A stretch of DNA of 60,237 nt, filler included, from Bipalium vagum (lineage: Eukaryota): the NCBI GenBank assembly GCA_037834085.1. It is 3 parts of 3 records of this genome, joined end to end, with 100 filler letters (N's around TTAATTAATTAA, not from the genome) between each part and the next. Parts side by side here need not be neighbours in the genome. Positions count along the whole stretch, not along the records: positions 43,002 to 60,237 come from JBBMKC010073635.1; 2 more parts are not named here. One strand, 5' to 3'. Every line of letters starts with the position of its first letter. Position 1 is the stretch's first letter. The notes below the pieces were generated by a model that was not told the origin of the DNA, did no database searches, and saw nothing but the letters and a program-made list of their open reading frames with translations. Position numbers and translations under genes: made by a program. Below, in pieces: positions 9,401 to 60,237 of the stretch.

Positions 9401-9514
9401 TTATTATTTGTATTTTTATATATAAATACTCTTCATTCTTTTAGATAAATAAAGTGAAAAATGCTAAGCTAAGGATGCAATTATATTATTATCATTAATA
9501 ATAATTTAACGTAC

Positions 9515-9805
9515 TACGAGTCCTGCTTCCTCTTGAGTTTCGTGATGAAATTGGTTCGGCATATAGGTCAGATTATATCCGATATTCTTACACATTGGGA
9601 TTGCTATTGGAACGCATTTATTAGGTCTGAAATTTTCCTGGTTTGACCGATCGGCCGTCGATCTATCAATTGTGATTTGATTGTTCGCCAAATGTTTCGA
9701 GGCCGAACTCAGTCGATCATTTCCAGCTTGAGATCCATTTGGAGACAGAAACAAGAACGGTGACAGTAAAAAAGATATAAAAATCATTCTTCTATATTTC
9801 AACAT
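9515..9805 (-). CDS. fz5/8: Frizzled-5/8 family Wnt receptor, first coding exon (signal peptide and start of cysteine-rich domain)
   Basis: ATG at 9805; hydrophobic signal peptide IFISFLLSPFLFLS; CRD motif CVPIAIPMCKNIGYNLTYMPNQFHHETQEEAGL matches the Fz5/8 consensus GYNxTxMPNQFxHxTQxEAGL; GTACGT donor at 9514; no further exon found toward position 1. Confidence 0.92.
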
Positions 9806-9959
9806 GAAATTCAACTAGTAGTACAGGTGACAAGAGATTTAAAATCAAAAGAGAAAGATTTATTTCGTTACTACACCGTTGTAAGAGTTAAGTGATTTCG
9901 AATAGGAAAGTAATGAACTTCGTCGAATATCGAACACAAGTAATATTATTCTGTAACGG

Positions 9960-10230: not shown

Positions 10231-13200
10231 CTTCAATAATAATTAGCAATTTAAGAAAAGTGGGTGTCTAGAGAATATGAATAAAATAATTTTCTTATTA
10301 ATTTAATTGTGTTAATTAATAAAATGCTAAAATTTGTACATAAGTTAATATTTTAAATGATTTTTTTTGTAATTGCAATAATTATAAATTTATCAAGATT
10401 GCAAACTCCATTAAAGATTCTAATAGTTGATAATTTGGGATTACTTGTGAGTTTTTTTTCCAATCAATTGTGCAATGAAGATTTATTGATTATCATTTTA
10501 TTATTATTGTTTTATTAAGCTATTGATTTGATAAAATTATTCATATTTATAACTGTAAATTGTAAATATTTATAAATTATCTAAATTAATAGTTTATTTA
10601 ATCATCTAAGTACATTATTTATAATTATTAATACAAAAGACTATGGCAACATCAAAAATAAAAATCTTTTATATATTAATTAATGATAAACTAAAAAGTT
10701 ATTTAAGCTTTAAGATTAAAACAATTTTTCCATTGAACTTTAGCAATCATTAAATTACAATAATAAAACAAATAGAAATATGTTACGTATCCTCTTTATA
10801 TTTTCGATGGTTTATCATTACATTAATATTAAGTTTCCATATTGCTTTTGTAACTTGCTTTCTCTGCAGTGTTTATATATTCATTTTCTTATAACTTTTT
10901 TACATTGAAAAGGAATATTTATAACTGTCTCTGAGATAAGAAATAACGTTAGTCTAAATTAATATCTATGTAATCACTAAATTAGAACGTACAACCTGTC
11001 TGGAATCTGTTTACTTAGGAGAAAAACTTGCTCTGGGAGTGTTAGCGTATTACCAAGGCGTGAGATTAATCATAAAATGATAAGTATTTTTAATTTCCCA
11101 ATGTAAGTCTTAAGTTATAACAGTTGGAAAAATAAAAATTTGAGTAATATAAATCATTATCTATCTATTCTTCCTCTTTCTGATAATAATCTCAAAAGTT
11201 TTATTAAATTCATTCTTAATATACATTCGAATGAAAATATTTTTCATTTTTTAAATTTTATTTATTTATATATTTTATTATTTTAAATCAGATTTATTTT
11301 TTTCACATTTTGTGAATATTTCTTAAAATACGTTTGACATGATATCTGTTAATTACCTCATAATTCAAAAACCATCAGAATCCGTATAAAAAATTTCATT
11401 GGTATAATCAACAAAGATCAATAAATCAACAACGTTTAATTAAATCACAATACATAGGCAATTTAGGCATACCCAAAAATAACAATGATACATATTATCT
11501 AGTTATCAACAAAATGTTCAAATAATAATGATATCAATTACCGAATTGCCAATTAGATATTCAAATAACAGTGTAATCAATTATCAAATTGATAATGAAA
11601 GAAAATAAATATTCACCTTATTTATTAGTAATTGTCAAAAATTACAATGAAAGTAAATAATGGATAACAAAAAAAACTAAAGAAAAAATAATAAAACGTT
11701 ATATAATAGGTTACTTAAAAAAACAAGGAAAAACAATATTCTTACGAATATTAATTCTTTTCAAATGCCAGAATTACTAACCATGTCGTTTTGGTTTACT
11801 CATGAATAGTCAATTTGTGGGGAACCTGAACAAAATCCTATCGCATAGTAAGAAACAAATTAAATGTACTTGCTTTTCAGGTACTCGTCTTCAATTAATC
11901 GTTTCACGTTTCACAAATTAGATGCTTTATTCAATAAGTTTACGTTCTAAATATCAATAATTTAAAATAATAATTTCAAGTAAGGTATATATCACCTGGC
12001 AGTTTGGTCAATCTACAACCCCCAACTTTTATAGTGAACAAGATCGAATTGAATCAGATACTTAAAATAATTTTGATTTCCTCAATTAAATTCTAAATTT
12101 ATCTTTAATAGATAATTTCACTTTTCTTTTTCTGATTTACTTGAGAAAACCAATTTCTTGACTAATGAAAATCTGCTAACTTCCCAAAAGTATTAATTAA
12201 TTATTTTGGTTAATATTACTAGTCTTTTTATATTTTGTGTTCTCGTCCACCTTGGTACTGTAAATATTGATGGCTCACCAGATGTTTGTCCAGATTTTCT
12301 TTTCGCTTCTGGTTCGCAAACACAACCATTTTTTCATTACCGGTTATAATTCAACGCTAAAATGAAATCCTTTAAGAAAAGGATTTCGGAAACAGTTTTA
12401 AAGTTTTGTTACATATTAAATAATAAATTATCTTATTATTTTTTAATGACAGATAACAGATATGAAGTTAGTATACAATAATCCACAAATTTTGGAGTCT
12501 AATGTAAATGAACGAAGTTTCACAATAATGAAACTAAGTTGGAAATAGATGTAAAATAAAAGTTTTCACAGAATTTACAAATCACAAAAAATTTAATGGA
12601 AACAGACAATGTAGAAAATATTCATAGGAAAATATTTACATAAAGCAAACATTCTTCATTCCATCGTGACCTAAGGAATGGAAGATATTCAATATACCAC
12701 TGAATACTTTATGTTTTCCGATGAAAAACACTTTTACTCGAAAAAGCGAATAAATCACTATAATTCTCCTTATTGAACCCACAAAAACAACCATTGAGCT
12801 TTTTCAGAAGGAATATACTCCTTGAAAATCACAGATTTGTGTGCAATTTTTTAATTTGGTTTTCTATTGCCTTTTTACTTTAGAGAAAATTTCTTTATGT
12901 ACAAAAATAATCTAATAATATTTGGTCTTTACAAAAGTTTTTAACAGATTTTTTAATGAAAGTGAAATAGATAAATTTTAATTGAAGAGTTTTTAATCAA
13001 ATATTAAGTCGTTAGTTCTCTTTATAATTAGTTTCCACGAACCCACACACTTCTCAAATCTACACCAATTTGATAGGAAAAGCTTTTTATTTTAGACTTT
13101 TATCACTAACCTTCTTAAAACGCCTAAACAGAGAAACATCTGATGATGTAATGTTCGTAGTGTAATAATGAAAAATTATACCTAACCTGGGACATACTTC

Positions 13201-33259: not shown

Positions 33260-34070
33260 TGGATGTTGACAAATTGCATTTCAGACACATTTTATTGTTT
33301 TATTATCAAAAGGTAAAATTTTAATTTTGAACTCAAGATCTTTCACATGCGCATGGATTGCTCTGACCACTGAGCTACATCCCCCGAGTAATTTTCAATT
33401 TATATCTCATCCCCCTCCTTTAAAGCTGACGTCCAGACCCTTAACCGACCCGAGTCTCTTTACTGCCATTTCCATTCCATTCCTTTACTTTTGCATTTTA
33501 GAGACCTTGTCCGCTGGTTGGTGTCCTGTGGTGGTCGCCATGTTAATTTCAATCGGTTTACAAACAAAACTACAAGTCATTTTTAGAATAAATTTATTAA
33601 TTTTTGATTGTAAGCCGATTGATATTAACAATTTCCATAGTATTTTGCAATCAACTGATCAAATTAAATTCCAGCATTAAACAGAAAATACCACAATAGA
33701 GTAACAGAAAATGTGTGGTGTTTCATTAAGAAAATGCCAGGATTCATACCAGTTTGGTCACTCGTCAGGGGTTTTACACCTTGGATGGAATGTACTGTCA
33801 CATCCATCAAATTCACATGATATGGCGCCCTTAAACTGTTACTTGTCTCAATCTGTACAAATTTTTTTAAACGTTACATCTTTTAATTCTAATTCTGGTG
33901 TCACCAAACCTGGATCAATTTTCGCAAGTAAAGATCAGAACTTTTATGAAAGTCGAATCATTCTACCAGACATAATCAATAATAATATAATAAAATACAT
34001 GTTTAGTATTAAATTACCGAACTTTGTTTTTCATATATAAAACGAAATCATTTTTTTCCGAACAACGAAA
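33260..34070 (+). mobile_element. Internally deleted mariner (mellifera-like) interrupted by a TRIM
   Basis: MDVDKLHFRHILLFYY at 33260; LGWNVLSHPSNSHDMAPLNCYL at about 33780; TIR remnant at about 34040-34070. Confidence 0.8.
33327..33545 (-). mobile_element. tRNA-containing miniature LTR retrotransposon (TRIM), copy 1: end of 5' LTR, PBS, 131-bp internal region, PPT, partial 3' LTR
   Basis: Minus strand: TAACA | TGGCGACCAC (PBS) ... AAAGGAGGGGGA (PPT) | TGAGATATA... GGGGATGTAGCTCAGTGGTCAGAGC (tRNA-Ala-like, A box); homologous to 57195-57359. Confidence 0.8.
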
Positions 34071-43001: not shown

Positions 43002-43836
43002 CCCACAAATTTTCTAACGGATTCATATCAGGGGACTGTGGTGGCCAATCGAGCAATGGAACCTTTTTTTTATTGAGCCAGGCTATTGTCTGTTTGGCTT
43101 TATGCTTCGGATCGTTGTCCTGCATAAAGAGATAATCGGAACCCATACCCAATTTATCAACGGACGACTGCAAATTCATGTCCACGATGTTTACATAATC
43201 TTTGGCATTCATCCTGCCAACTACTTCGGTCAAATTACCAACTCCGTTAGCTGAAAAACATCCCCAAACCATAACCAGTGGCGAGTGTTTCACAGTCGGT
43301 TTAGTAATGGCCTGACTTAGTGGTTCTCCGCGTCGTTTCCAACATCGTTGACGTCTTTTGTTATCTAAGAGTTGAAATTTGCTCTCATCCGACCACAGAA
43401 TACGATGCCACCACTCTTTAGGTTTGTCAGCATACATTTTAGCAAAATCCAATCGCTTTTTCATATTTTTCTTAGAAATCAGAGGTTTCCGGGTTGCGTA
43501 ACCACCCTTTACGCCGCTTTCGTTGAGTCGTCGTCTTATTGTTGATACACTTGTCTTCGTTTTTAAGTTTTCCTTTATCTCTTTGGACGAAATGAAACGG
43601 TTTTTGAGAGCAGTTCTCTTTATGAGCCTATCATCGGCATCAGTCGTCACACGTTTTCTACCAGACCTCTGTTTGTTGACTACTGAGCCTGTATTTTTCT
43701 GTTTCAGGATAAGTTGTCGGACAGTTTCATGAGCAATTTGAAAATTTTTACCAGTCTTTCGGTAAGATTTAGTTAATTTATAGTCATTGATAGCCGCGAC
43801 CCGTATGTCAGTGGGTATTTCACTTATTTTTGGCAT
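43002..43836 (-). CDS. Tc1-like DD34E transposase, uninterrupted up to the assembly gap
   Basis: Paired-like HTH, SGRKR, WSDESKF, VMVWGCF, QDNDPKH, WPPQSPDMNPLENLW. Confidence 0.95.
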
Positions 43837-44190
43837 ATTCTGATTACAAAAAATGAAAATAAAATCATTATAAATAAAATTTGATTTACATACTTCGAAT
43901 TTTATTAAAGTAATAAAATATAATCACGGAATTCTTATTTAATTAAATTTTTGTTTACTGTCAAAATACTTTTGATTTTGGAAATTAATAATGATTATTT
44001 TTAAAATAGTTGTACGCTTCTATAACAAAGACTTTTGAAATAGTGGATTATTAAAACATAAAATAGACTAATTGCGCTTTATATTTATATAATTATATCT
44101 ATCGTATGTCAAATAATTTTATAGTTATTTAAATTTGAATAATACAAATATCTTATATAATTGCTGTCAAAATAATTATGATTTATAGTG
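43002..44190 (-). mobile_element. Young Tc1-like element with IR/DR-type left end
   Basis: TA|CACTATAAATC terminus at 44190; direct repeats CTGTCAAAATA.TT.TGATTT at about 43958 and 44164, weaker copy at about 44107; 54-nt GT-AG intron 43840-43893 just before the ATG. Confidence 0.88.
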
Positions 44191-49100: not shown

Positions 49101-50507
49101 AACAAAATACAAATGAGATCAACGATTCTCTTGTTATACATCACTTTCAAAAATCAATCTCCACCACAAACCACATTCGATTAAAACACTCACTTCTAGA
49201 TTCACAGGCAAAATAACACAAAACACACTCCGTACAGACACAAGACTAGTAAAAAACGGAAAACAACCAATAAGACTAATTCTCACTACAATATTTAAAT
49301 TGTTTATTTTTATAGAATTAGACTTAGTATCAAACAATTTACTTAATAATTATTGTCTTTAAATAAATCATAATGAGATACCATTTTTTAAAAAAGTAAA
49401 GAATTTAAAAAATAAATTTGCAAAATCTGTATAAAACGAAAATACCGGAAATAGGAACATAGCATTACTTTCGTTTAGGCTTATTTTTGGAATATTATTT
49501 TAGTTTATTAAGTTTTTTGCTTTGTGATTGGCCCACGACCACAAATCTCTACTTTTTGAAGGCTATTTCCTCTAATAGTCCATAATAACAATAATTGAAA
49601 TGGTATGAAAAAATATATTTGTTTTATAACAATTACATTTTTCCATGTTTTTAAAGATAAATCAACAAGAAATCAGTGTAATTATTAATTATTCATGGTG
49701 AAATAAAATTCATCTGTCTGATAATAATTGTCTTTCAAGAAAATTTGGAATCGTTGTTTTCATCATTTGATATTTTCGTTGGTCTGTCATCTTTTTCTTC
49801 TATTCTACCTACTTAACTGCTTTATATGAAGCTGAATATTTTCGCCTCTTCTTCATTTAAAAGATTTTCCATTTCAGCAATTATATTTTTGAATTTCATT
49901 AATAGAAAAAGTGTTTTGAATATCCATTGTAATTATATTATTAAAAATGGTTTCCATATATTCCGTCGAAAATAAAGAATAAGTTATTCTCTAATTTGGA
50001 CAATATTTATTTTTATATTTTCCAAAGTGTTTGACAACATTTCTATTAATTTTCTTTCCTTTAATGACATCTTAAATATATAAAAATTTTAAATTTTCAG
50101 TAAAATTTAAAAGCTTACTCTAGTAGAATAAAAAAAATTTTAGTAAAAATGTAATCAATAAAATTGGGATTTTCTTTTATATGAAAATTAAACAATATTC
50201 TAGAAATAGTTTATCCAGTTAGGAATTAATTTTCAGAAATATATTTGGAAAAGTTTCGTAACATATTTTGGAAAATGTTGTCCCCAAAAATTTAATATCT
50301 AATAGGAATAGAATTAAAATTTGCAAGGTTAATTATAAAAAATAATTAGGAACTTAAGAAAAGTTAAGAAAATAATAATATTTTTACAATAAAATAACCA
50401 TCAAGCTTTCAAATGAAATGCTGAAAAAATGTTTGAAAATATTTTCATGTTTAATTTTCCAGCATCTCTCTGACTATAATTATCAACGATGTTCTGAATT
50501 TAAACAG

Positions 50508-50581
50508 GCCTCTGTGGTGCAATTGACTAGTGCATTCAGCTGTTAACCGAAAGGTTGGTGGTTCCAGCTTACCCTCGGGCG
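50508..50581 (+). pseudogene. trnN-GTT: tRNA-Asn(GTT) pseudogene
   Basis: 74-nt match to metazoan tRNA-Asn (CTGTTAACCGAAAGGTTGGTGGTTC); two acceptor-stem mismatches, A-C mismatch in the anticodon stem, B box TTCCA instead of TTCGA. Confidence 0.85.
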
Positions 50582-50756
50582 ATATATTTTCCATCTTTAC
50601 GTGGAAAATAATATTAAAACAAATCTTATTGTTAGAACAAAACTTTTTTTCGTCTTCAGTCCATAACTATATATATAAAAAATTATAAATAAAGATATTT
50701 TTATATCTTCTCAATAACTCACAACTTTAAATTAAAATACAAGTTTAATTAAATTA

Positions 50757-51310
50757 AAATACTCTTATTAACGAACCACTGCTTAATAACGAACGAATTT
50801 TAATACTGAAATCTAGCCAATTGAGAAATTTCCTTTAATTAACGAACCCTGTTTAATATAACGAACAGAAAAAATTTCTTGTTATTTTCTTATAGAAACT
50901 TTAAATGAGTGATTAGTGTGTGTATAATGAGTGTTTATGAGTAAATATTTGTTGAAATATTCAAATTTCTAAAAAAATTATCAGTTTTAAAAGTAATTAA
51001 TTTAAATTTTAGAAAATAATGAATAATAACAATGCTTTATAAAGAAGAATGTTCTATAGAAGACAAGATGAAAGTTATTGAATTTAAAAACGATGCATTC
51101 ATTGGATCAAGGAATTATTCATTCCTTTAAATCTAGTTATAATAAATTCTTGAACAGAAAAATATTTTTCCAAGCCAAAGATTTAAATGTGAATTATAAC
51201 GATATCCTTAAAAAGATAAAATTTGATGACGCTGTATTTTTGATGGTTAAAGCTTGGAAAAGTGTGAGTAGGGAATGTATATAAAATATTTGTTTAAAAA
51301 ATTGAATCTA
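50757..51310 (+). mobile_element. Deleted pogo/Tigger-type element
   Basis: Subterminal TAACGAAC repeats; HSLDQGIIHSFKSSY...KAWKSVSRECI (DDE_1 C-terminal motif). Confidence 0.8.
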
Positions 51311-51399
51311 TAAAAATTATTAAATATAATATAAAAACAACTAATTACTTGAATGAGAATTCTAGAGTTAATTAATATTTATAGTTTATATAAGTATAT

Positions 51400-51900
51400 A
51401 TCATTATATAAACAATACCTAATACAATGAGTTTTACTGTTGCCAAAACTTTTGCTCATTTGTATATTAATCATTAAACAATCTTTGTCGGTGCTAGAAC
51501 CCCAGCACATTTGTTTAATATATAGAAGTTGTCTGGTACCATATTCCTTAAAGGAAAGGTTATATGTATCTTATTATTTTTTAAATAGATAGACATTTCT
51601 TTAAAAAGGAAACTACATTTGAAAAATTTTGTGTTTGGGCAATTTCTTCGGATGTTGCATATTCTTCCGCATTCATAGCATATTCGTTCTTTTCTTTCTG
51701 GGCATAATCTAGCTATGTGCCCAGGCCCCTTGCATGCATAGCAAATTATTGGTCTTCTAACTATTCAATTCGATTCATTTTTTTCACCTTGATCTTGTGT
51801 TTGCCATTATTACTGTTAACTTTACTATTTTTGATCACCTGTGATTAGTGTATTATTGGAACTGATTTGGCTTGACAATTGATCTATTACTAAACAACAA
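51400..51900 (-). mobile_element. LTR retrotransposon gag fragment
   Basis: CCHC zinc knuckle CYACKGPGHIARLC at about 51700-51745. Confidence 0.6.
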
Positions 51901-52288
51901 AGGTTATTGTATTTTTTTTGGAGGTAGTACATAAGTGAGAGGTCAGTAAAAATCATAGGTACATAGTTTATTGGAATAAGCATTAAAATTTTATTAATGT
52001 TGATGATAAAAGTATTGTGATTTTTTAACAGAAAATATAATTGTCATTGAAAAAATTCAAAATAGGCGAGATAAAATCTGATGAAGTTGTTTCGAAAGAT
52101 AATAAAGCCATCTTGATTCCAATTATGTCATAACTTAGAATGATTTTGTTAAAAAAAATAAATTCATATTTACTCAGCTAAATAATAAAACCGTATTTGA
52201 TACAATTTCCCTTCAAAGAAATACTAGACAAAGACATCGTACAATTTCCATGAAGTTTAGAAAATTTTGTTGTCAATAAATCGTAATA

Positions 52289-52373
52289 CGGTAGACTTCG
52301 CTTAATACGATATTGCCGGTACAGCGAAAAATTATCGTAATAACCGATATAACGTATTACAAGAAGTCTACTT
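52289..52373. mobile_element. Tiny Tigger/pogo-like MITE
   Basis: CGGTAGACTTCGCTTAATACG ... CGTATTACAAGAAGTCTACT. Confidence 0.55.
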
Positions 52374-53399
52374 AATATGATTGTGCAATAATTTTTTGTA
52401 ATATTAATTAAAAAAAGAATATTGATTCTGAAATACTAATAATTAAACATAAATATCATTTAATTTGTTTTAAAGAAGTCGGGTATGGATAACTGCTTAT
52501 AAAATTGTGGTTTATTTATGATGCCATCTTCAATTACAAAGTTAATTCGATTCCAGTACTAAAACTTTTTTCCTGGAGGTATTCGGGAATTTAAATAACA
52601 GATGATACCAGTTAAATTATTAGTTTCTGTAAAGGAATCACCTTCGCGTCACAGATATCCGTGTCTGTTAGTATCGGGGTTGTAGGTTCTTTATCGCATT
52701 CACAAAAAAATCAAAATCTTTTCTTCATAATCTTATCAATATTATTTTGATCATTTAATATAATGTTTTCATCAATTAATGTCTAAATAATTTTCAGATA
52801 TTTTTGGATTAAAGTGACAGTGTTGAAAACATTTTGCTGTTAAACCTGTCCTAACTAAAGACCATGCATGTTTCAAAAGGTGAAGTGTCAGTAAGACATC
52901 AATGGTTTTGGAAAATTCTAAAACTATCGATTTATTATTAACCAAAAATCATATTAAGCGAAATAAAATATTTTGCGATAATGCTTTTATTATTCCTTGG
53001 TCACACGACTGGAGATTTGCAACTGTGTTAACTGGCTAAAACTAAATTTTAACGTTAGACATTTCTGAACAACCTAAACGACTAGTTACGTTATCAACAA
53101 ATAAAATAAATTTCTTTTTCATTGAATATAAGACGATTAAACTTTTTTCTAAAATATAGACCGCGTCATCCATGCTTTATTGTTAGAATAATAGATGATT
53201 TTATTTTTTTATGATTTTATCTTTTCTAACTGTAGTAATACTTTTATCCGAGCAATCTGTATTCATTAAAATCTAATTAAGTAACTAAATAAAACTAAGT
53301 GGTGGTAATGTAAAAATCAGTTGCAGAAACTTCCTTTTTTCTGATTTTGCTCAGAACGGCGCTAATGGCTCCAAAACTAGCGTCCGTGTCTAGAATAAA

Positions 53400-54900
53400 A
53401 GTACGATTCCCCGAGGAAAATTCAATATAGATGCTGTGCATGTTTTTTAGTCCCTGAAAATAATGCTGGTATTGTTGTGTTCACTGTATTTGCTTCTATA
53501 TATCCGCTTATTGTGATGCTGATAACACTGCGTATTTGTCAATGAAACGCCTGTAGTAATTCTTTAGTCCTAGAAAAGCTCCCAGGTGGGACGTACATCC
53601 AGGAGGCTTACCATTTAGAACTTTCTCCGCATTCTTTTGGTTGGTCCTAATCCTGCTTGCACTTACAGTCTGTTCCAAGAAGACGAGTTCTTTCTAATCG
53701 AATCTGTACTTTGTTGCATTTATTTTTAAAGCGGCATCCTCCTCCTATAGTTATCTTCGTACGAACCATAAATTAATGTCATCGATTTATACCAAAATCC
53801 CATTGAATAGAAGCCATCAAGGAGTTCATGCGTCAGGTTCTGAAAAGTTTCTGAGGCCGTTGCCAGCAGTTGAAATGGTATGCGGTTGAAACAGAACTGG
53901 TCTTGTCTAGTGCTGAACACAGTAATCAATCTTGATTTTTTTTAGAGATCCACATGATAGAAAGCTTGACCTAAATCCATTAAAGAAAAACATTTTCAAT
54001 CCAGTAACGTCTGCGGGTTTGGCATTGGGAACGTGTTTTCGGATATAACGATCACACGTCGGAAGTCAACACACATCCAAATTGATTCATCTGTTTTAAC
54101 AACCACTACAATTGTGAATTACAGGGCTTTTACATTTAGATACCACTCCAGCGCAACCAAATTCAAAACCATATCGTCAATTTTGTCTTCTAAATGCATT
54201 TGTTGTCTTCTTTGTTGTTGCACAATCGATTTATCTGTTACGTTGATCTCAAATTGGATCAGATCTGTAAAAACTATTAGAGGTCGAAGATCTTCCCGTA
54301 TTTGTGCAACATATTACAAAACCACACACTGTGTAAATTTTCAAACAGTTACATTACATAATTAGTTCTGTCTGTATATGAAATTTTCATACCAAAATCA
54401 ATCTCATCAATATTGTTCAGTTCACGTAGATCTATCCAAAATTTCTATATATCTGCTCCTCCACGCTCCTGAGTTTCACAGTATCTACAGCTTCACTCCA
54501 CCTATCGTCATCCAACTCCATTATCTACCGTCATCTGTCCTGAAAATTTCAGCATCCTTCACATCAGTCATATCTATTGCATTCTGATTTTTTGAGGAGC
54601 TCGATGACTCGATCTATCCACGAAATGAAAGCAATGGAGTCAGTCTATTTTTTTCATCAAGGTTCTCATAACGACTTTCATGTTGGTTAGTATCATCTGT
54701 TTCCTCGTGTATGCACATCACCGAACTGCACTGGGACTTTAAAGTAGTTTCCAATAAATGACAAGAACGGAATAAATGACTTTGTTGACCACAAATAAGA
54801 CATCTATTTTTCAGCGGTCCGCGTATTCTCAGATGGTCGTTACATCTTCTTTGACTAATATTTCAGATACAACACTATTTGACATATAAAGATTATATTT
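53400..54900 (-). mobile_element. Decayed Gypsy/Ty3 gag-pol
   Basis: Knuckle CLICGQQSHLFRSC (about 54760-54802); RT motifs MCVDFRRV, FPMPNP, DLGQAFYH, FNRIPF, V*IDDI. Confidence 0.88.
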
Positions 54901-54987
54901 TGTCATCAAAAACCTTCATTCAAACAAATCTCAAATTATGTACCTCTTACATATTGAAATTTTAAAAAATTAAAAATTATTTTGTTT

Positions 54988-55600
54988 TTTAGGGTGGTGG
55001 GAAAGTCTGTAGACTAATTTAAGGAAAATCCAAAAACTTCTTAAAATACACATATAATGTATATAAAACAAAATTTTATTCTTTAATATACTCCATTGTG
55101 ACCAATTGTCTTCTGCTATATTTCTGCAAGCTGATTGATTCCTGTGGCATATCATGCTTTGAAAGTGAAAAATTTTCAACAGACATTTTTGACCTCGTCA
55201 ACTGAAACAAAGAAGGTCCCCGAAGGAAATGTGCTATCGACCTGAGAAGTGGTAATCGGAAGGTGCTAGATCTGGCCTGTAGACTGGAGGAGAGAGAGGA
55301 TAAAATGCAGCTCTTCATTTTTGGCGTGTTATTTTTGAAGTATGCGCTTTGGCATTATCATTTTGAGGAATAATATGTTTACAATTGAGTAAGAAAGCAT
55401 ACCGGAACCTCAAAGCTTTAGGTACATGTTCTAATTGCATTAAATAGAGTTCGGCATTGACGGGTTTGTCACTTTAAAGACGCTCAAAATGCACTATTCC
55501 CTCGTAAATCCACCAAACTCAGAGAATTTTTTTCAAAGCGTTCTATTTTTGATACTGCGAGAGCTTATTGGTTTGAATCGAGCCACTGATTTTGCCTATT
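54988..55600 (-). mobile_element. 3' half of a mariner element
   Basis: QWLD..., VWWIYEGIVHFE, QNDNAKAH, YRPDLAPSDYHF; TIR TTAGGGTGGTGGGAAAGTC at about 54989. Confidence 0.9.
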
Positions 55601-56609
55601 CTGCAAACTGCATGCTCATTCCAATGAGTCAATATTGCCTTGACACTTGAAGAGAACAGAGAATAGCTTGTTTTCTGTATTAACTCTTTGGGACTTAAGT
55701 TGGTCGCCTTGGAAGCTTTAGCGATTAGACCGAACACAGTCATTCCTGAAAAAGACAGGTGAAGAGCATAACTAGCTCTCATCACAGAGACACAAAAGGG
55801 GTTTCTGTTGGTTCTTTTGCATTCCAAACGACACAAATATAGGTGATGACAATAGGAGAGCCGGCTGAAAATGAGTGCTTGGATAAGTCTACAAACTGAG
55901 AGTCAAGGATTAATTGCCCTTTGGTGAGCTCATCCCCTCTGCTCCCGAGAGTTTTATTCAAAATTTTTTTTATTTAAAATTTATTCAAATTTTTTTTTAT
56001 TCAAAATTTTTTTTCTGCACTAATCTAATGAAAGGCAAGAATCGAATCACAAGAGCCCTCAAGAGACCGGAGCAAGATGTCACTACTCCGGACGAGGTGA
56101 ATGACATCAAATTGTCACTAGTTTGCTCTGATATACACGTTGGGGTCCCTACCGCAACTGGTTGATAGTCTCCGGGTTTTAGAGTGGACCCATCTGTAAT
56201 CTTCTAAGGACAGAACTTTCATGTCCGGATGATGATACTTATTCTCAATGGCCAAGTGAGATGTCAAACCCATGAGTTTGTTAAATTTGTCCTTCCACCG
56301 AAGCTGAGCACCTTCGGTAGACATTTCAGCGATAATGAGCTCCCCGTTGGCATTCTCTTCCAACAAGAAATAGAACATTATTAAAACTAAGGCACTCGGT
56401 TGAGTCTCTACACAGTGAAGCCCCGTAAAAAGCAAGGTTGTGGCCTCAGTTGCCGTATCTCTAGGTGTGACTAACCATTGTTTGTCTGGGACAAGAAGGA
56501 TCGGAAGACTGGAATACATTGAATATTTGTATTCTAATTCTACGTTGTCGGCAGAAATCTTGTCTTGAAATTCCACGTTGAATTCATAAGAGAAAAGTTG
56601 ATTTTCCAT
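55600..56609 (-). pseudogene. Endogenous viral element: negative-strand RNA virus (rhabdovirus-like) nucleoprotein N, frameshifted and 3'-truncated
   Basis: Intronless GC-richer island; ATG at 56609; joining frames gives about 330 aa including RFLPFIRLVQK and VMRASYALHLSFSGMTVFGLI, resembling the RL--K and L---GM core motifs of plant/invertebrate rhabdovirus N. Recognised by eye only. Confidence 0.6.
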
Positions 56610-57194
56610 GGTATAAGCAGTATTATATTCATTTAATAAAACCGTTTATTCACGTTGATTGCCTAACAATTTTTTTAATTTCCCCTTAATCAAATCGTCT
56701 ACTTTTTATCACTATAAAAAACTATTTGTGGAGTCGGAGCGAGAAAAGAAATAATGATTTTGCAATTTAAAACCCAAAGCAAACTCAACCAACTTAAGTT
56801 TGAAAAATTCGTGATTTTGGAAAATTTAGATTTTATTTATAATTTAAGAAAACATTTTTTACTTGTGTTTGATTTTAGTTACTTTATTGAAAAGTGTAAA
56901 ATTTTTACATTGATTTTCAGAAAGTTTCATTATATAATTTGTAATTAGTGTCATTCTTGAAATTAAATTGGGTCAGATCGCAAATATGGTCTACCCATAC
57001 TCAAAAACTTAATAAATCTTAAATTTTAATTATTTATAAAAGTGAACCATTTATTTAAATTTCTTGTATTTTGTGTTTTTGGACATTGAATATTGCTACT
57101 GATTGGATTCTAATTGAATACGATGAAATGATATATTTTTATTTTTTTCGATATTTATTTTATTTATTTAATAAATATAAATATAATAAAAAAT

Positions 57195-57359
57195 TCCCCT
57201 CCTTTAAATCTCATATGCATACCCTTAACTGCCCCGAGTCTCTTGGTGTCTTGGTGTGGTCGCCATGTTAGTAGGAGGGATTCGAACCCGGGACCTTCAT
57301 ATGCGCATGCATTGTTCTGGACGCTGAGTCATCCCCCGACTAATTTTCAATATATCTCA
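57195..57359 (-). mobile_element. tRNA-containing TRIM, copy 2: complete 94-bp LTR (57266-57359), PBS, 71-bp internal region, PPT
   Basis: Minus strand: TGAGATATA...GGGGATGACTCAG...GGTTCGAATCCC (B box)...CTAACA | TGGCGACCAC ... AAAGGAGGGGA. Confidence 0.82.
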
Positions 57360-58764
57360 CTATATATATATGTAAATTTTTTTCATTCTATTTTCATTAA
57401 GTATTTCAAATATATTAATTTGTAAAATTTGTAAAAATATCTAATTTATCTCTTTCTAGGATCCAGAAAGAATTTAAGGAATTAATGAAATCACCAAAAA
57501 CTGTCAATAACCAATTAAGTTAACCCTATGACAATGCTATGTTATTGCTATCTATTCAGGCTCTTAGGTTCTCCTGAGCCTGGTGATCCCATGATACAAT
57601 GGTTTCTACTCAATAAGCAGATCTGTTTCAATCTGTTTATCTGCTCTTTCCATGAAAAAATTAAACATCGAAGAAACAACAGAACATTTATTAAAATAAT
57701 CAGTCTTTCGTATTAAGAATTACAATTTGGAAATATTGATTTGTAATTTTTTATATTTCAACTTTACACAAGTGTATTACTTTAGATTGATATTAAGTAT
57801 TTTATTCATATACATATATATTCATATTTATCTAAGTTAATTATTTTTTTAACATTTGATGCGACTAAAAAAGATGATTATGAAAGTATATCTAAATTCA
57901 AGAATGAGTTAATTATTGACACTTCTGCAATATCTAACATCTATTATTCATTATTCATTTATTAATGGCTTCAAATACACAGTACTTTAAAAATAATATT
58001 TATTATTCACCTTTATTAATTTTATAAAAATATAAAAATTAACTAATAAAATTTAATTATCATCATTTTCGATTATAACGAGTTGTTTGGGACTGGATAT
58101 TTTTTTCATCCTCTAAGATTTTATTCTCTATTAACAAGAGTTATTTACAATGAACAATTGTGATTTTTCTATCTATAAAATAATATTTTAAATTTGTACT
58201 AATTATTTACTTAGGAATCTCTTAAATTAATGTATATAAACAAAAATTGTCTGTAAAATAAAATTTTGTATATTAAAAAATGTTTTCCGCAAATTTTTTT
58301 TATTACATCTATTTTTATTAAATAAATATCTAAAACAAACATAAAAATACTACGTTTTACCTAAAGTAAACATTTTTCGCTATTTCCTCTAATAGCCCAA
58401 TAATTCTAAAAATACTTCTCTATTATTTCAACGACGAGAATTGGTATTTTATTTTTTTATAAATTATTATCTGGAAAATATTGTGATTTTTTACTAATTT
58501 TAAACTTTATTATTTAATTAATTCGTTATTATATATTTATAATTAATTTAATTAGTGCAGTATAGCATTTCTAATCCGCCACTCTCTGTAAACCGCCAGT
58601 TTTTAGAAATTTATATTAGGCGTATGTATAAGTTTTAAACCATTTTTTCATCGTTGTTTTACTAATCCAAATATTATCAAATAACTGTCGCTAAATTTTA
58701 CATTGGTAATCAACATATTAAACTTTATAAATACATTAATTTTATACTTATACTTAAGTTATTT

Positions 58765-59748
58765 TATAAAAATCGTGGATTCAAAGTCGGAAATTTTGAT
58801 GTTACCGATCGACCACTTAGTGATGCTCCACAGACATTGGAATCAGCCAAACTGGAAGAGCTGCTAAATGAAAATACAGCCCAGATGCAAGCAGAACTCG
58901 CTAAACAACTTGCCATTGATGAAAGAACTGTGGGGAGACGGTTACACAACATGGGAAAAATTTAGAGGGCTGGAAATTGGATTCCGCACGAACTTTCCGA
59001 AAGCAATATTTTATGCCGATTAACAACATGCCCATCCCTTATTTCTAGACAAATAAAAAGACTCTATGGAAAATCGTCACTGGAGATTAAAAATGGATTA
59101 ATTACAATAATCAAAAATGCAAACATTCGTGGATGGACCCTGGAATGCCAGTTAATTCAGTTGTCAAAACAAATATTCACAATAAAAAGTACTCCTTCGC
59201 ATCTGGTGGGATATGAAAGTACCCATTCATTGTGACCTCTTTCAAGCTGGTGAAACCATTAATATGTGAAGTTATTGCAAACAATTGCTGCATTTCGCTA
59301 AACAAGTCGAGAAAAAAATCTTTTTTCGGGCAAGGATCGCGATGATTGTCCTGCTACATGACAATACCAGACGCATGTAGCGAAACATGCTCATGAAACA
59401 TATTTACAGTAAGGCTGGGAAGTTCTCCCTCACGCGACTTCTTCTCCAGACCTTGCTTCTAGAGATTTTTATTTGTTTCGATGAATGCAACATGAATTAG
59501 CTGGCTGTCGTTTCAATAATGTTGACCATACGAAATTTTGTCAAGAATTATCTTGGGTCAAGATGAACATCTTTCTATCGAACCGGGATTCGGTAATTAC
59601 CTGAAAGATGGTAAAAAGTGATTTCCAATAATGGATATTATGTTGATGACTGATTTTTTAATCCCTGCGTATAAAAATAAATATATTACCTTTTTAAAAA
59701 CATTTATTTTTTTTTTAAAAATGGACTAAAACTTATGCTTACACCTAG
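58765..59748 (+). mobile_element. Decayed mariner (mauritiana-like), 5'-truncated
   Basis: WIPHELS, IVTGD*KWINYNN, IWWD, LLHDNTR, SPDLASRDFYLF; TIR ...ACTTATGCTTACACCTAG|TA. Confidence 0.92.
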
Positions 59749-60237
59749 TATGTAAAATCGCCAATAATTTTTAACAATGTTAGCACATAATAATATATCA
59801 AATATTTGTTTTAATTTATTTAAAATTTAGATAATGAATAATAAAGGAAATTATCCAAAACTGGAAAAATTTAGATTTTAAGATATTGCAGCATTAATAC
59901 AATATCTGATAATAATGTTGCAAATATCTTTTCAGTGAAATTCAAGAAAGAAATTTCAAGACTAACAACAAATGACATTCGAAAGAATAAACACAAAATT
60001 TTAGAAAATTCCGAATAACATACTGTGGAGTATCCCACAATAAACATTTTATTAGAAAAAATTTTGATGATTTTTGTGTTTTTAATTTTTATGTGTAAGG
60101 ATTTGTGAAAGATAAAACCCTTCTCTTTAATTAATTATAATTAATTATTATTATTATTATTAGTAATATTGAAAGATAAGAAGATATTTTAAGAATTTAG
60201 TAGTAAATTAAAATAAGAAACTGGATATTTCTAAAAA

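Follow-up and report, generated by a model that had tools for sequence, protein, structure and literature searches.

The window analysed here, a 60,237-nucleotide stretch from the Bipalium vagum genome (GenBank assembly GCA_037834085.1), is rich in transposons and has a GC content of 26%. On its minus strand, from 56609 to ∼55615, lies a single former reading frame, which two frameshifts and an AT tandem tract of 59 bases have split into four pieces; the last of them resembles the core of rhabdovirus nucleoproteins (N) (Table 1). The only host exon recognised in the window (9509 to 9814, minus strand) is an intron-bounded exon of the Frizzled-5/8 type; this gene has a long spacer from the hydrophobic N terminus to the cysteine-rich domain, and the domain is split by an intron. 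Taken with the low GC content and the many transposons, this exon suits a genome of invertebrate type. Rfam and ARAGORN returned nothing in the window. Among the sequences they left uncalled is a short repeat of very high copy number, tRNA-like in appearance and present as two 82% copies (57180 to 57400 and 33342 to 33460) and reaching a summed contig depth of 33,000 versus 24. A Tc1-type transposase at 43018 to 43923 on the minus strand has a long open frame that runs into an assembly gap, and is likely a young copy.

Table 1. Features of the nucleoprotein-like element and its surroundings, in window coordinates.
Feature	Position	Strand	Description
Piece 1	56196..56609	-	N-terminal part of ∼138 codons, beginning with the ATG; attributed to N through its continuity and position, with weak homology
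Frameshift 1 zone	56171..56204	-	Codon-phase change point, 2-lnL range
Piece 2	56015..56195	-	Frame call; ends in candidate R-x-x-x-K helix
AT tandem tract (break 2)	55952..56014	-	Four imperfect units, 5% GC
Piece 3	55794..55973	-	Colinear with those helices of N that precede the conserved glycine motif
Frameshift 3 zone	55785..55814	-	Codon-phase change point; Pfam match begins here
Piece 4	55615..55797	-	Conserved N core with L-x-x-x-G-M-T-x-x-G-L motif; stops at the truncation
Mariner transposase fragment	55100..55615	-	5′-truncated, decayed; PF01359, 26.3 bits; adjoins the viral 3′ end directly
Host repeat	56667..56727	-	Marks the 5′ limit of the insert; 80% match to 26493-26554
LTR-retrotransposon remains	51474-51764 and 53298-54118	-	Weak matches to zinc knuckle, reverse transcriptase, and RNase H
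Further mariner/DDE_1 transposase remnants	17190-18126; 58666-59500; 51072-51284	-; +; +	Both strands

On the minus strand, piece 1 is open from the ATG at 56609 to 56121, piece 2 from 56203 to 55997, piece 3 from 55973 to 55785, and piece 4 from 55902 to 55546; pieces 1 and 3 lie in one frame, and pieces 2 and 4 each occupy one of the other two. We called frames without protein homology, using a 3-periodic Markov (codon-phase) model trained on rhabdovirus N genes. When trained on Alpha N genes only, this model chose the correct frame in 195 to 208 of 210 held-out stretches of 54 to 177 bases. Its path over the element ran through 56620-56195, 56194-56033, a host-like segment at 56032-55952, 55951-55793, and 55792-55559, with both frameshifts placed at its change points. 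Since the model also flags transposon ORFs and the host exon, as well as an antisense stretch at 56030-56160, this path shows a once-continuous coding sequence and not a viral origin. The AT tract consists of tandem units of 16, 16, 11, and 16 bases, and all three matches to its unit in the window fall inside the tract. The preliminary description had quoted four peptides (MENQLFSY..., ITDGSTLK..., KTLGSRGD..., and ...LTHWNEH) as one broken gene; each is present on the minus strand, and the codon-phase model recovered the same frame path.

The breaks and both junctions are covered by one 2407-base contig (depth 24.4), which extends over 55100 to 57309 without a differing letter or gap, so the breaks are present in the reads. 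The stretch is present in one public run only; that run probably comes from the assembly's own sample, and the contig is therefore not independent. The viral part is at the depth of one contig alone, which, at an identity of 85%, makes it single-copy in the run. An assembly chimera, a concern already raised in the preliminary description, or a contaminating viral sequence might be suspected from the lone public run and from the six N-gaps in the window, but either is barely credible: the contig joins the element to both of its flanks, a live virus would not have three frame breaks, and RNA viruses do not pass through DNA.

At its 3′ end the gene is cut short at the mariner fragment, a feature absent from the preliminary description. 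Only ∼43 residues follow the conserved glycine in the window, compared to 155 to 246 in homologues, and the C-terminal loss amounts to about 110 to 140 residues. The mariner fragment matches another mariner of the window (tblastn E 3e-7), and contig depth climbs from 24 to >500 into it, from bin 55562-55638 downward. Two frameshifts, a tandem tract, and this truncation are disabling mutations, so N cannot be made, in keeping with the earlier view that the copy no longer codes. On the 5′ side, the position of the host repeat leaves at most ∼57 bases before the ATG for a possible viral 5′ UTR. We saw neither a target-site duplication nor a poly(A) tail; the longest repeat shared by the flanks is 9 bases, and the original 3′ end is lost. 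Decayed remains of an LTR retrotransposon lie 1.3 to 4 kb downstream on the same strand, with weak matches to RVT_1, RNase H, and a zinc knuckle that fall below the Pfam cut-offs. The gag-like part of these remains lies downstream of pol, which implies that they are nested or rearranged.

Direct searches yielded no relatives. Word-seeded searches, which covered longer proteins only, returned none among 51 candidates for piece 4 and none among 229 for piece 1, and phmmer with the 118-residue frame of piece 4 gave 0 matches at E 0.001 against 1.84 billion representatives. DNA-pattern scans of viral and metagenome contigs found no relative, PDB sequences held none, and no public RNA data set was listed with the stretch. 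Given this outcome, we fetched mononegavirus genomes via their polymerase motifs and built N sets and profiles from these virus genomes only. No further viral gene turned up in the window when 859 ORFs taken from 240 fetched loci served as tblastn queries; this search is insensitive, given that it missed the N element as well. Nor was a second viral family detected when Pfam was run on all six frames of 50001-60237 and on 147 selected ORFs. One of the fetched genomes (L069) is that of a 12.6-kb metatranscriptome rhabdovirus with a Delta-type N at 11209-12414 (PF03216, 39.5 bits).

Homology to rhabdovirus N is clearest in piece 4. Against the Pfam profile Rhabdo_ncap_2 (PF03216), which the preliminary description had put forward as a check, piece 4 scored 27.7 to 27.8 bits over profile positions 189 to 248 of 293. 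This lies above the curated cut-off of 25, and the score falls to 23.8 with piece 4 embedded in a 330-residue frame. Pieces 1 to 3 had no Pfam match. A cellular or transposon family, the finding that had been named as fatal to a viral reading, was detected nowhere on the element by Pfam or PDB sequence searches, and Pfam scans gave no match to PF00945 (Alpha-type N). In searches of 1276 six-frame window fragments, piece 4 was the first and sole significant match to a profile of 20 Beta and Delta N sequences, from which one near-identical Beta row had been left out (27.8 bits, E 9e-8), and likewise to profiles of 10 Delta N (28.2 bits) and 4 novirhabdovirus-type (Gamma) N (15.0 bits, E 6e-4). 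The sequences in this last set (L274, L279, L282, and L284) are ones that we take to be novirhabdovirus-type N, on the basis of PF03216 matches and genome size. A profile of 10 plant rhabdovirus N matched piece 4 weakly (7.9 bits), and piece 4 went unreported with profiles of 11 mymona-like first ORFs and of 38 Alpha N (11 of 49 Alpha rows left out), the latter at E up to 5. The significant stand-alone match covers only 60 of about 310 codons; within it, the conserved glycine of the motif is invariant in 21 of 21 aligned rows.

Pairwise comparisons were made without and with Gamma sequences. Without them, each of the 15 highest-ranking proteins, out of 89 from mononegaviruses, was a Beta or Delta N. 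With Gamma added, the four Gamma N ranked 1 to 4 of 24 against piece 4 (z 9.5 to 10.2), the best of them sharing 16 of 53 residues (∼30%), and the N of Wuhan mosquito virus 9 was next best (z 7.8). Four-sequence profiles scored piece 4 at 17.7 to 27.2 bits for Delta and 16.0 bits for Gamma. Searches for further relatives of the Wuhan mosquito virus 9 N yielded nothing beyond this protein, and the Atlas entry for this homologue (P0061) gave only leads under 0.9. In the record for this virus (L244, 175-1669), the reference N has 279 residues, compared to 498 in other isolates, and the reference contig is broken near the N start.

That nyamiviruses have been recorded from a dugesiid triclad (PMC12282299; PMC9241645) makes a mononegavirus outside the rhabdoviruses, such as a nyamivirus, worth weighing as the donor. 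It is a very improbable one: the element matches PF03216 and not PF06407, the family matched by a xinmovirus N in our set, and the non-rhabdovirus or unlabelled proteins tested, a set without an N identified as nyamivirus, all had z of 1.6 or less.

A nucleoprotein should have a two-lobed fold, and among the structure models only that of piece 4 was good. It reached a pLDDT of 78.9 and was built on an alignment that contained no Gamma rows. Foldseek placed the VHSV nucleoprotein first of 130 rows for this model, though with a non-significant E value of 1.3; against the PDB, Foldseek and VIA returned generic helical bundles only, with no significant row. A single-sequence model of piece 1 was unusable (pLDDT 45.6).

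For pieces 1 to 3, many tests were run, and support flips with the reference set. Piece 3, joined to piece 4 with an X at the break, raised its score, and this gain was matched by 0, 5, and 0 of 200 shuffles with Beta and Delta profiles, and in a semi-global test 2 of 150 shuffles were as good; Gamma N gave it no support (164/300). For the two upstream pieces the pattern is reversed. Piece 2 in context was equalled against Gamma N by 4 of 300 shuffles, compared to 40 and 56 of 300 in the other frames, and had no support from Beta and Delta profiles (37/200). Piece 1 in context was equalled against Gamma N by 1 of 200 shuffles, with no support from Beta and Delta (67/100). On its own, piece 1 was matched significantly by none of the eight N-terminal profiles; its best global z values among 73 were to two Alpha N (3.3 and 3.2), which the Alpha N-terminal profile does not confirm.

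Spacing offers a further view of the upstream pieces. The candidate R helix lies 195 codons from the ATG (154 to 218 in 18 of 19 homologues), and 88 codons, counting the tract, separate its R from the conserved H (84 to 91 in 18 of 19). By profile score this helix comes 510th among 120,368 windows. A rival candidate, located 11 codons further upstream, has a slightly better score, so that the AT tract may have added to or replaced viral sequence. The preliminary description had recognised an RL--K helix followed by an L---GM motif; in N of the PF03216 type such a helix is expected ∼85 to 95 residues ahead of the glycine motif. The glycine motif is borne out in piece 4, whereas the RL--K helix is plausible only, given its weak score and the higher-scoring rival position.

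The same description had portrayed the element as a GC-richer island unlike the host exons and the neighbouring transposons. Its GC content (0.40 to 0.42) does exceed the window mean of 0.26, but the second contrast fails, as five transposon stretches (0.36 to 0.41) and the host exon (0.405) are alike in GC. The CpG observed/expected ratio of the island (0.62) is lower than in the transposon stretches and host exon (0.72 to 1.28); together with its TpA value of 0.58, it falls inside the range of 21 Beta and Delta N genes (0.22 to 0.87 and 0.53 to 0.92, respectively).

These results bear on how much of the element is viral. If only the last ∼350 bases were, pieces 1 and 2 would be an unrelated, adjoining coding remnant. 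Their want of significant stand-alone homology would fit such an arrangement, as would an AT tract between pieces 2 and 3 formed as a repair scar. We regard it as quite improbable, given that single-copy depth and composition are constant across all pieces, that the ATG-to-R-helix and R-to-H spacings fit those of homologues, and that both upstream pieces find in-context support from Gamma N.

Placement of the donor depended on which sequences and pieces were included. In trees without Gamma rows, the element joined Wuhan mosquito virus 9 with UFBoot values of 93 to 97; this firm grouping was dropped once Gamma rows entered the trees, where the element sits on a long branch between Gamma and Beta plus Delta. 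We then placed it on the 39 branches of unrooted trees (three near-redundant Beta rows omitted, and a set without Margarhavirus N). With all four pieces, 5 branches were kept, every one on the Gamma side, and Wuhan mosquito virus 9 was rejected as sister (AU p 0.005). With pieces 3 and 4, Wuhan mosquito virus 9 was best and 9 of 39 branches were kept; piece 4 alone kept 22 of 39. On this sequence evidence, the donor is a rhabdovirus outside Alpha and of a deep lineage, which may belong either to a Gamma-side stem or to Stangrhavirus. We infer that this lineage is undescribed, and the best-kept part of the copy appears most like novirhabdovirus-type (Gamma) N. The proposal of a rhabdovirus N fossil is supported by PF03216 and by independent profiles. 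The likeness to plant and invertebrate viruses that accompanied it needs refining, the closest pairwise matches being Gamma N.

We conclude, with a probability of roughly 0.86, that the element is a single-copy, broken, 3′-truncated chromosomal copy of the N gene of a non-Alpha rhabdovirus, likely made by retrotransposon enzymes and likely in functionless decay. Rhabdoviruses encode no reverse transcriptase, and for this reason a host retrotransposon enzyme is the presumed copier; it would have made a DNA copy of viral N RNA within a heritable cell. The template was probably N mRNA, given that the insert begins at most ∼57 bases before the ATG. Where the mariner fragment now adjoins the copy, the viral 3′ end may have been deleted at a later time or have gone missing when the ends were joined at integration, and the copy would then have decayed neutrally. 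This route can be no more than inferred from a locus with neither a target-site duplication nor poly(A), and with nearby retrotransposon remains below Pfam cut-offs. A route by way of retrotransposon reverse transcriptase has been proposed for tick and mosquito insertions (PMC6580184). The insertion appears fairly young: there are 0 stops in 306 in-frame codons, which would correspond to under about 7% neutral divergence, a bound that is partly circular since the pieces were delimited as open frames.

A copy that no longer codes could nonetheless serve as a small-RNA (piRNA) template against its cognate virus, in the way that many viral insertions of arthropods do; the preliminary description had suggested a small-RNA role. 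Tick and mosquito rhabdovirus-derived insertions are enriched in piRNA clusters (PMC6580184), three PIWI genes are strongly expressed in planarian stem cells (bioRxiv 10.1101/551184), and the copy sits among transposon remains. These transposons lie on both strands, however, and the copy is alone; moreover, PIWI knockdown left the one planarian virus tested, a toti-like virus, repressed, with no PIWI control found (bioRxiv 10.1101/551184). We consider such a role unlikely, and continue to favour a copy in functionless decay.

Rhabdovirus nucleoprotein fossils are common in arthropods, which makes this kind of element ordinary. What is unusual is a virus lineage without a close sequenced relative, together with a probable free-living flatworm host. 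In the literature, surveyed with partial coverage, we found no rhabdovirus or rhabdoviral insertion in a planarian or other free-living flatworm, and no novirhabdovirus-like insertion. In a survey of 66 flatworm species, Rhabdoviridae occurred only in parasitic Neodermata and were placed as ancestral to vertebrate rhabdoviruses such as lyssaviruses (PMC9241645). DNA-virus insertions have been reported in a fluke (PMC10269781). According to ICTV, Gamma hosts are fish or molluscs, and Delta hosts are insects, ticks, crustaceans, and nematodes (PMC13249128); one gammarhabdovirus comes from a mussel (PMC12282299), and novirhabdoviruses are known from fish and from one freshwater mussel (PMC13249128; PMC12282299). 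Novirhabdoviruses are described as basal, and rhabdovirus insertions are known from arthropods (PMC5014481). It is a tentative idea, and one that we would not bet on, that free-living flatworms here yield their first rhabdovirus trace and that the virus belonged to a deep Gamma-side (novirhabdovirus) lineage. If true, rhabdoviruses would extend beyond parasitic flatworms to free-living ones, and the invertebrate relatives of fish novirhabdoviruses would include viruses of planarians in addition to those of mussels. A novirhabdovirus-like element could then act as bait, in planarian transcriptomes, for invertebrate relatives of an isolated fish-virus branch.

Compared with known systems, the element most resembles in kind the rhabdovirus-derived insertions (NIRVS, or nrEVEs) of mosquitoes and ticks, which are likewise broken DNA copies of a mononegavirus structural gene in transposon-rich DNA (PMC6580184; PMC5014481). 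It differs from them in that its host is probably not an arthropod and nothing more than about 30% identical to its donor came up in the sequences searched. The platrhaviruses and other rhabdoviruses of parasitic flatworms share with it an association with flatworms, but they are reported from Neodermata only (PMC9241645), and the element misses the Alpha-type N profile. Wuhan mosquito virus 9 (Stangrhavirus, Deltarhabdovirinae) is next best in its pairwise z and is preferred with pieces 3 and 4, yet it is rejected as a four-piece sister, and its pairwise matches to pieces 1 to 3 are non-significant. Relative to novirhabdovirus-type N, the identity of ∼30% is confined to the best 53 residues, piece 3 is unmatched, and the N-terminal part of the element exceeds theirs by ∼60 residues (its conserved K is near codon 199, theirs at 137 to 140). 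It is nevertheless with these proteins that the element shares its best piece 4 matches, the L-x-x-x-G-M-T-x-x-G-L motif, weak support for pieces 1 and 2, and its four-piece placement.
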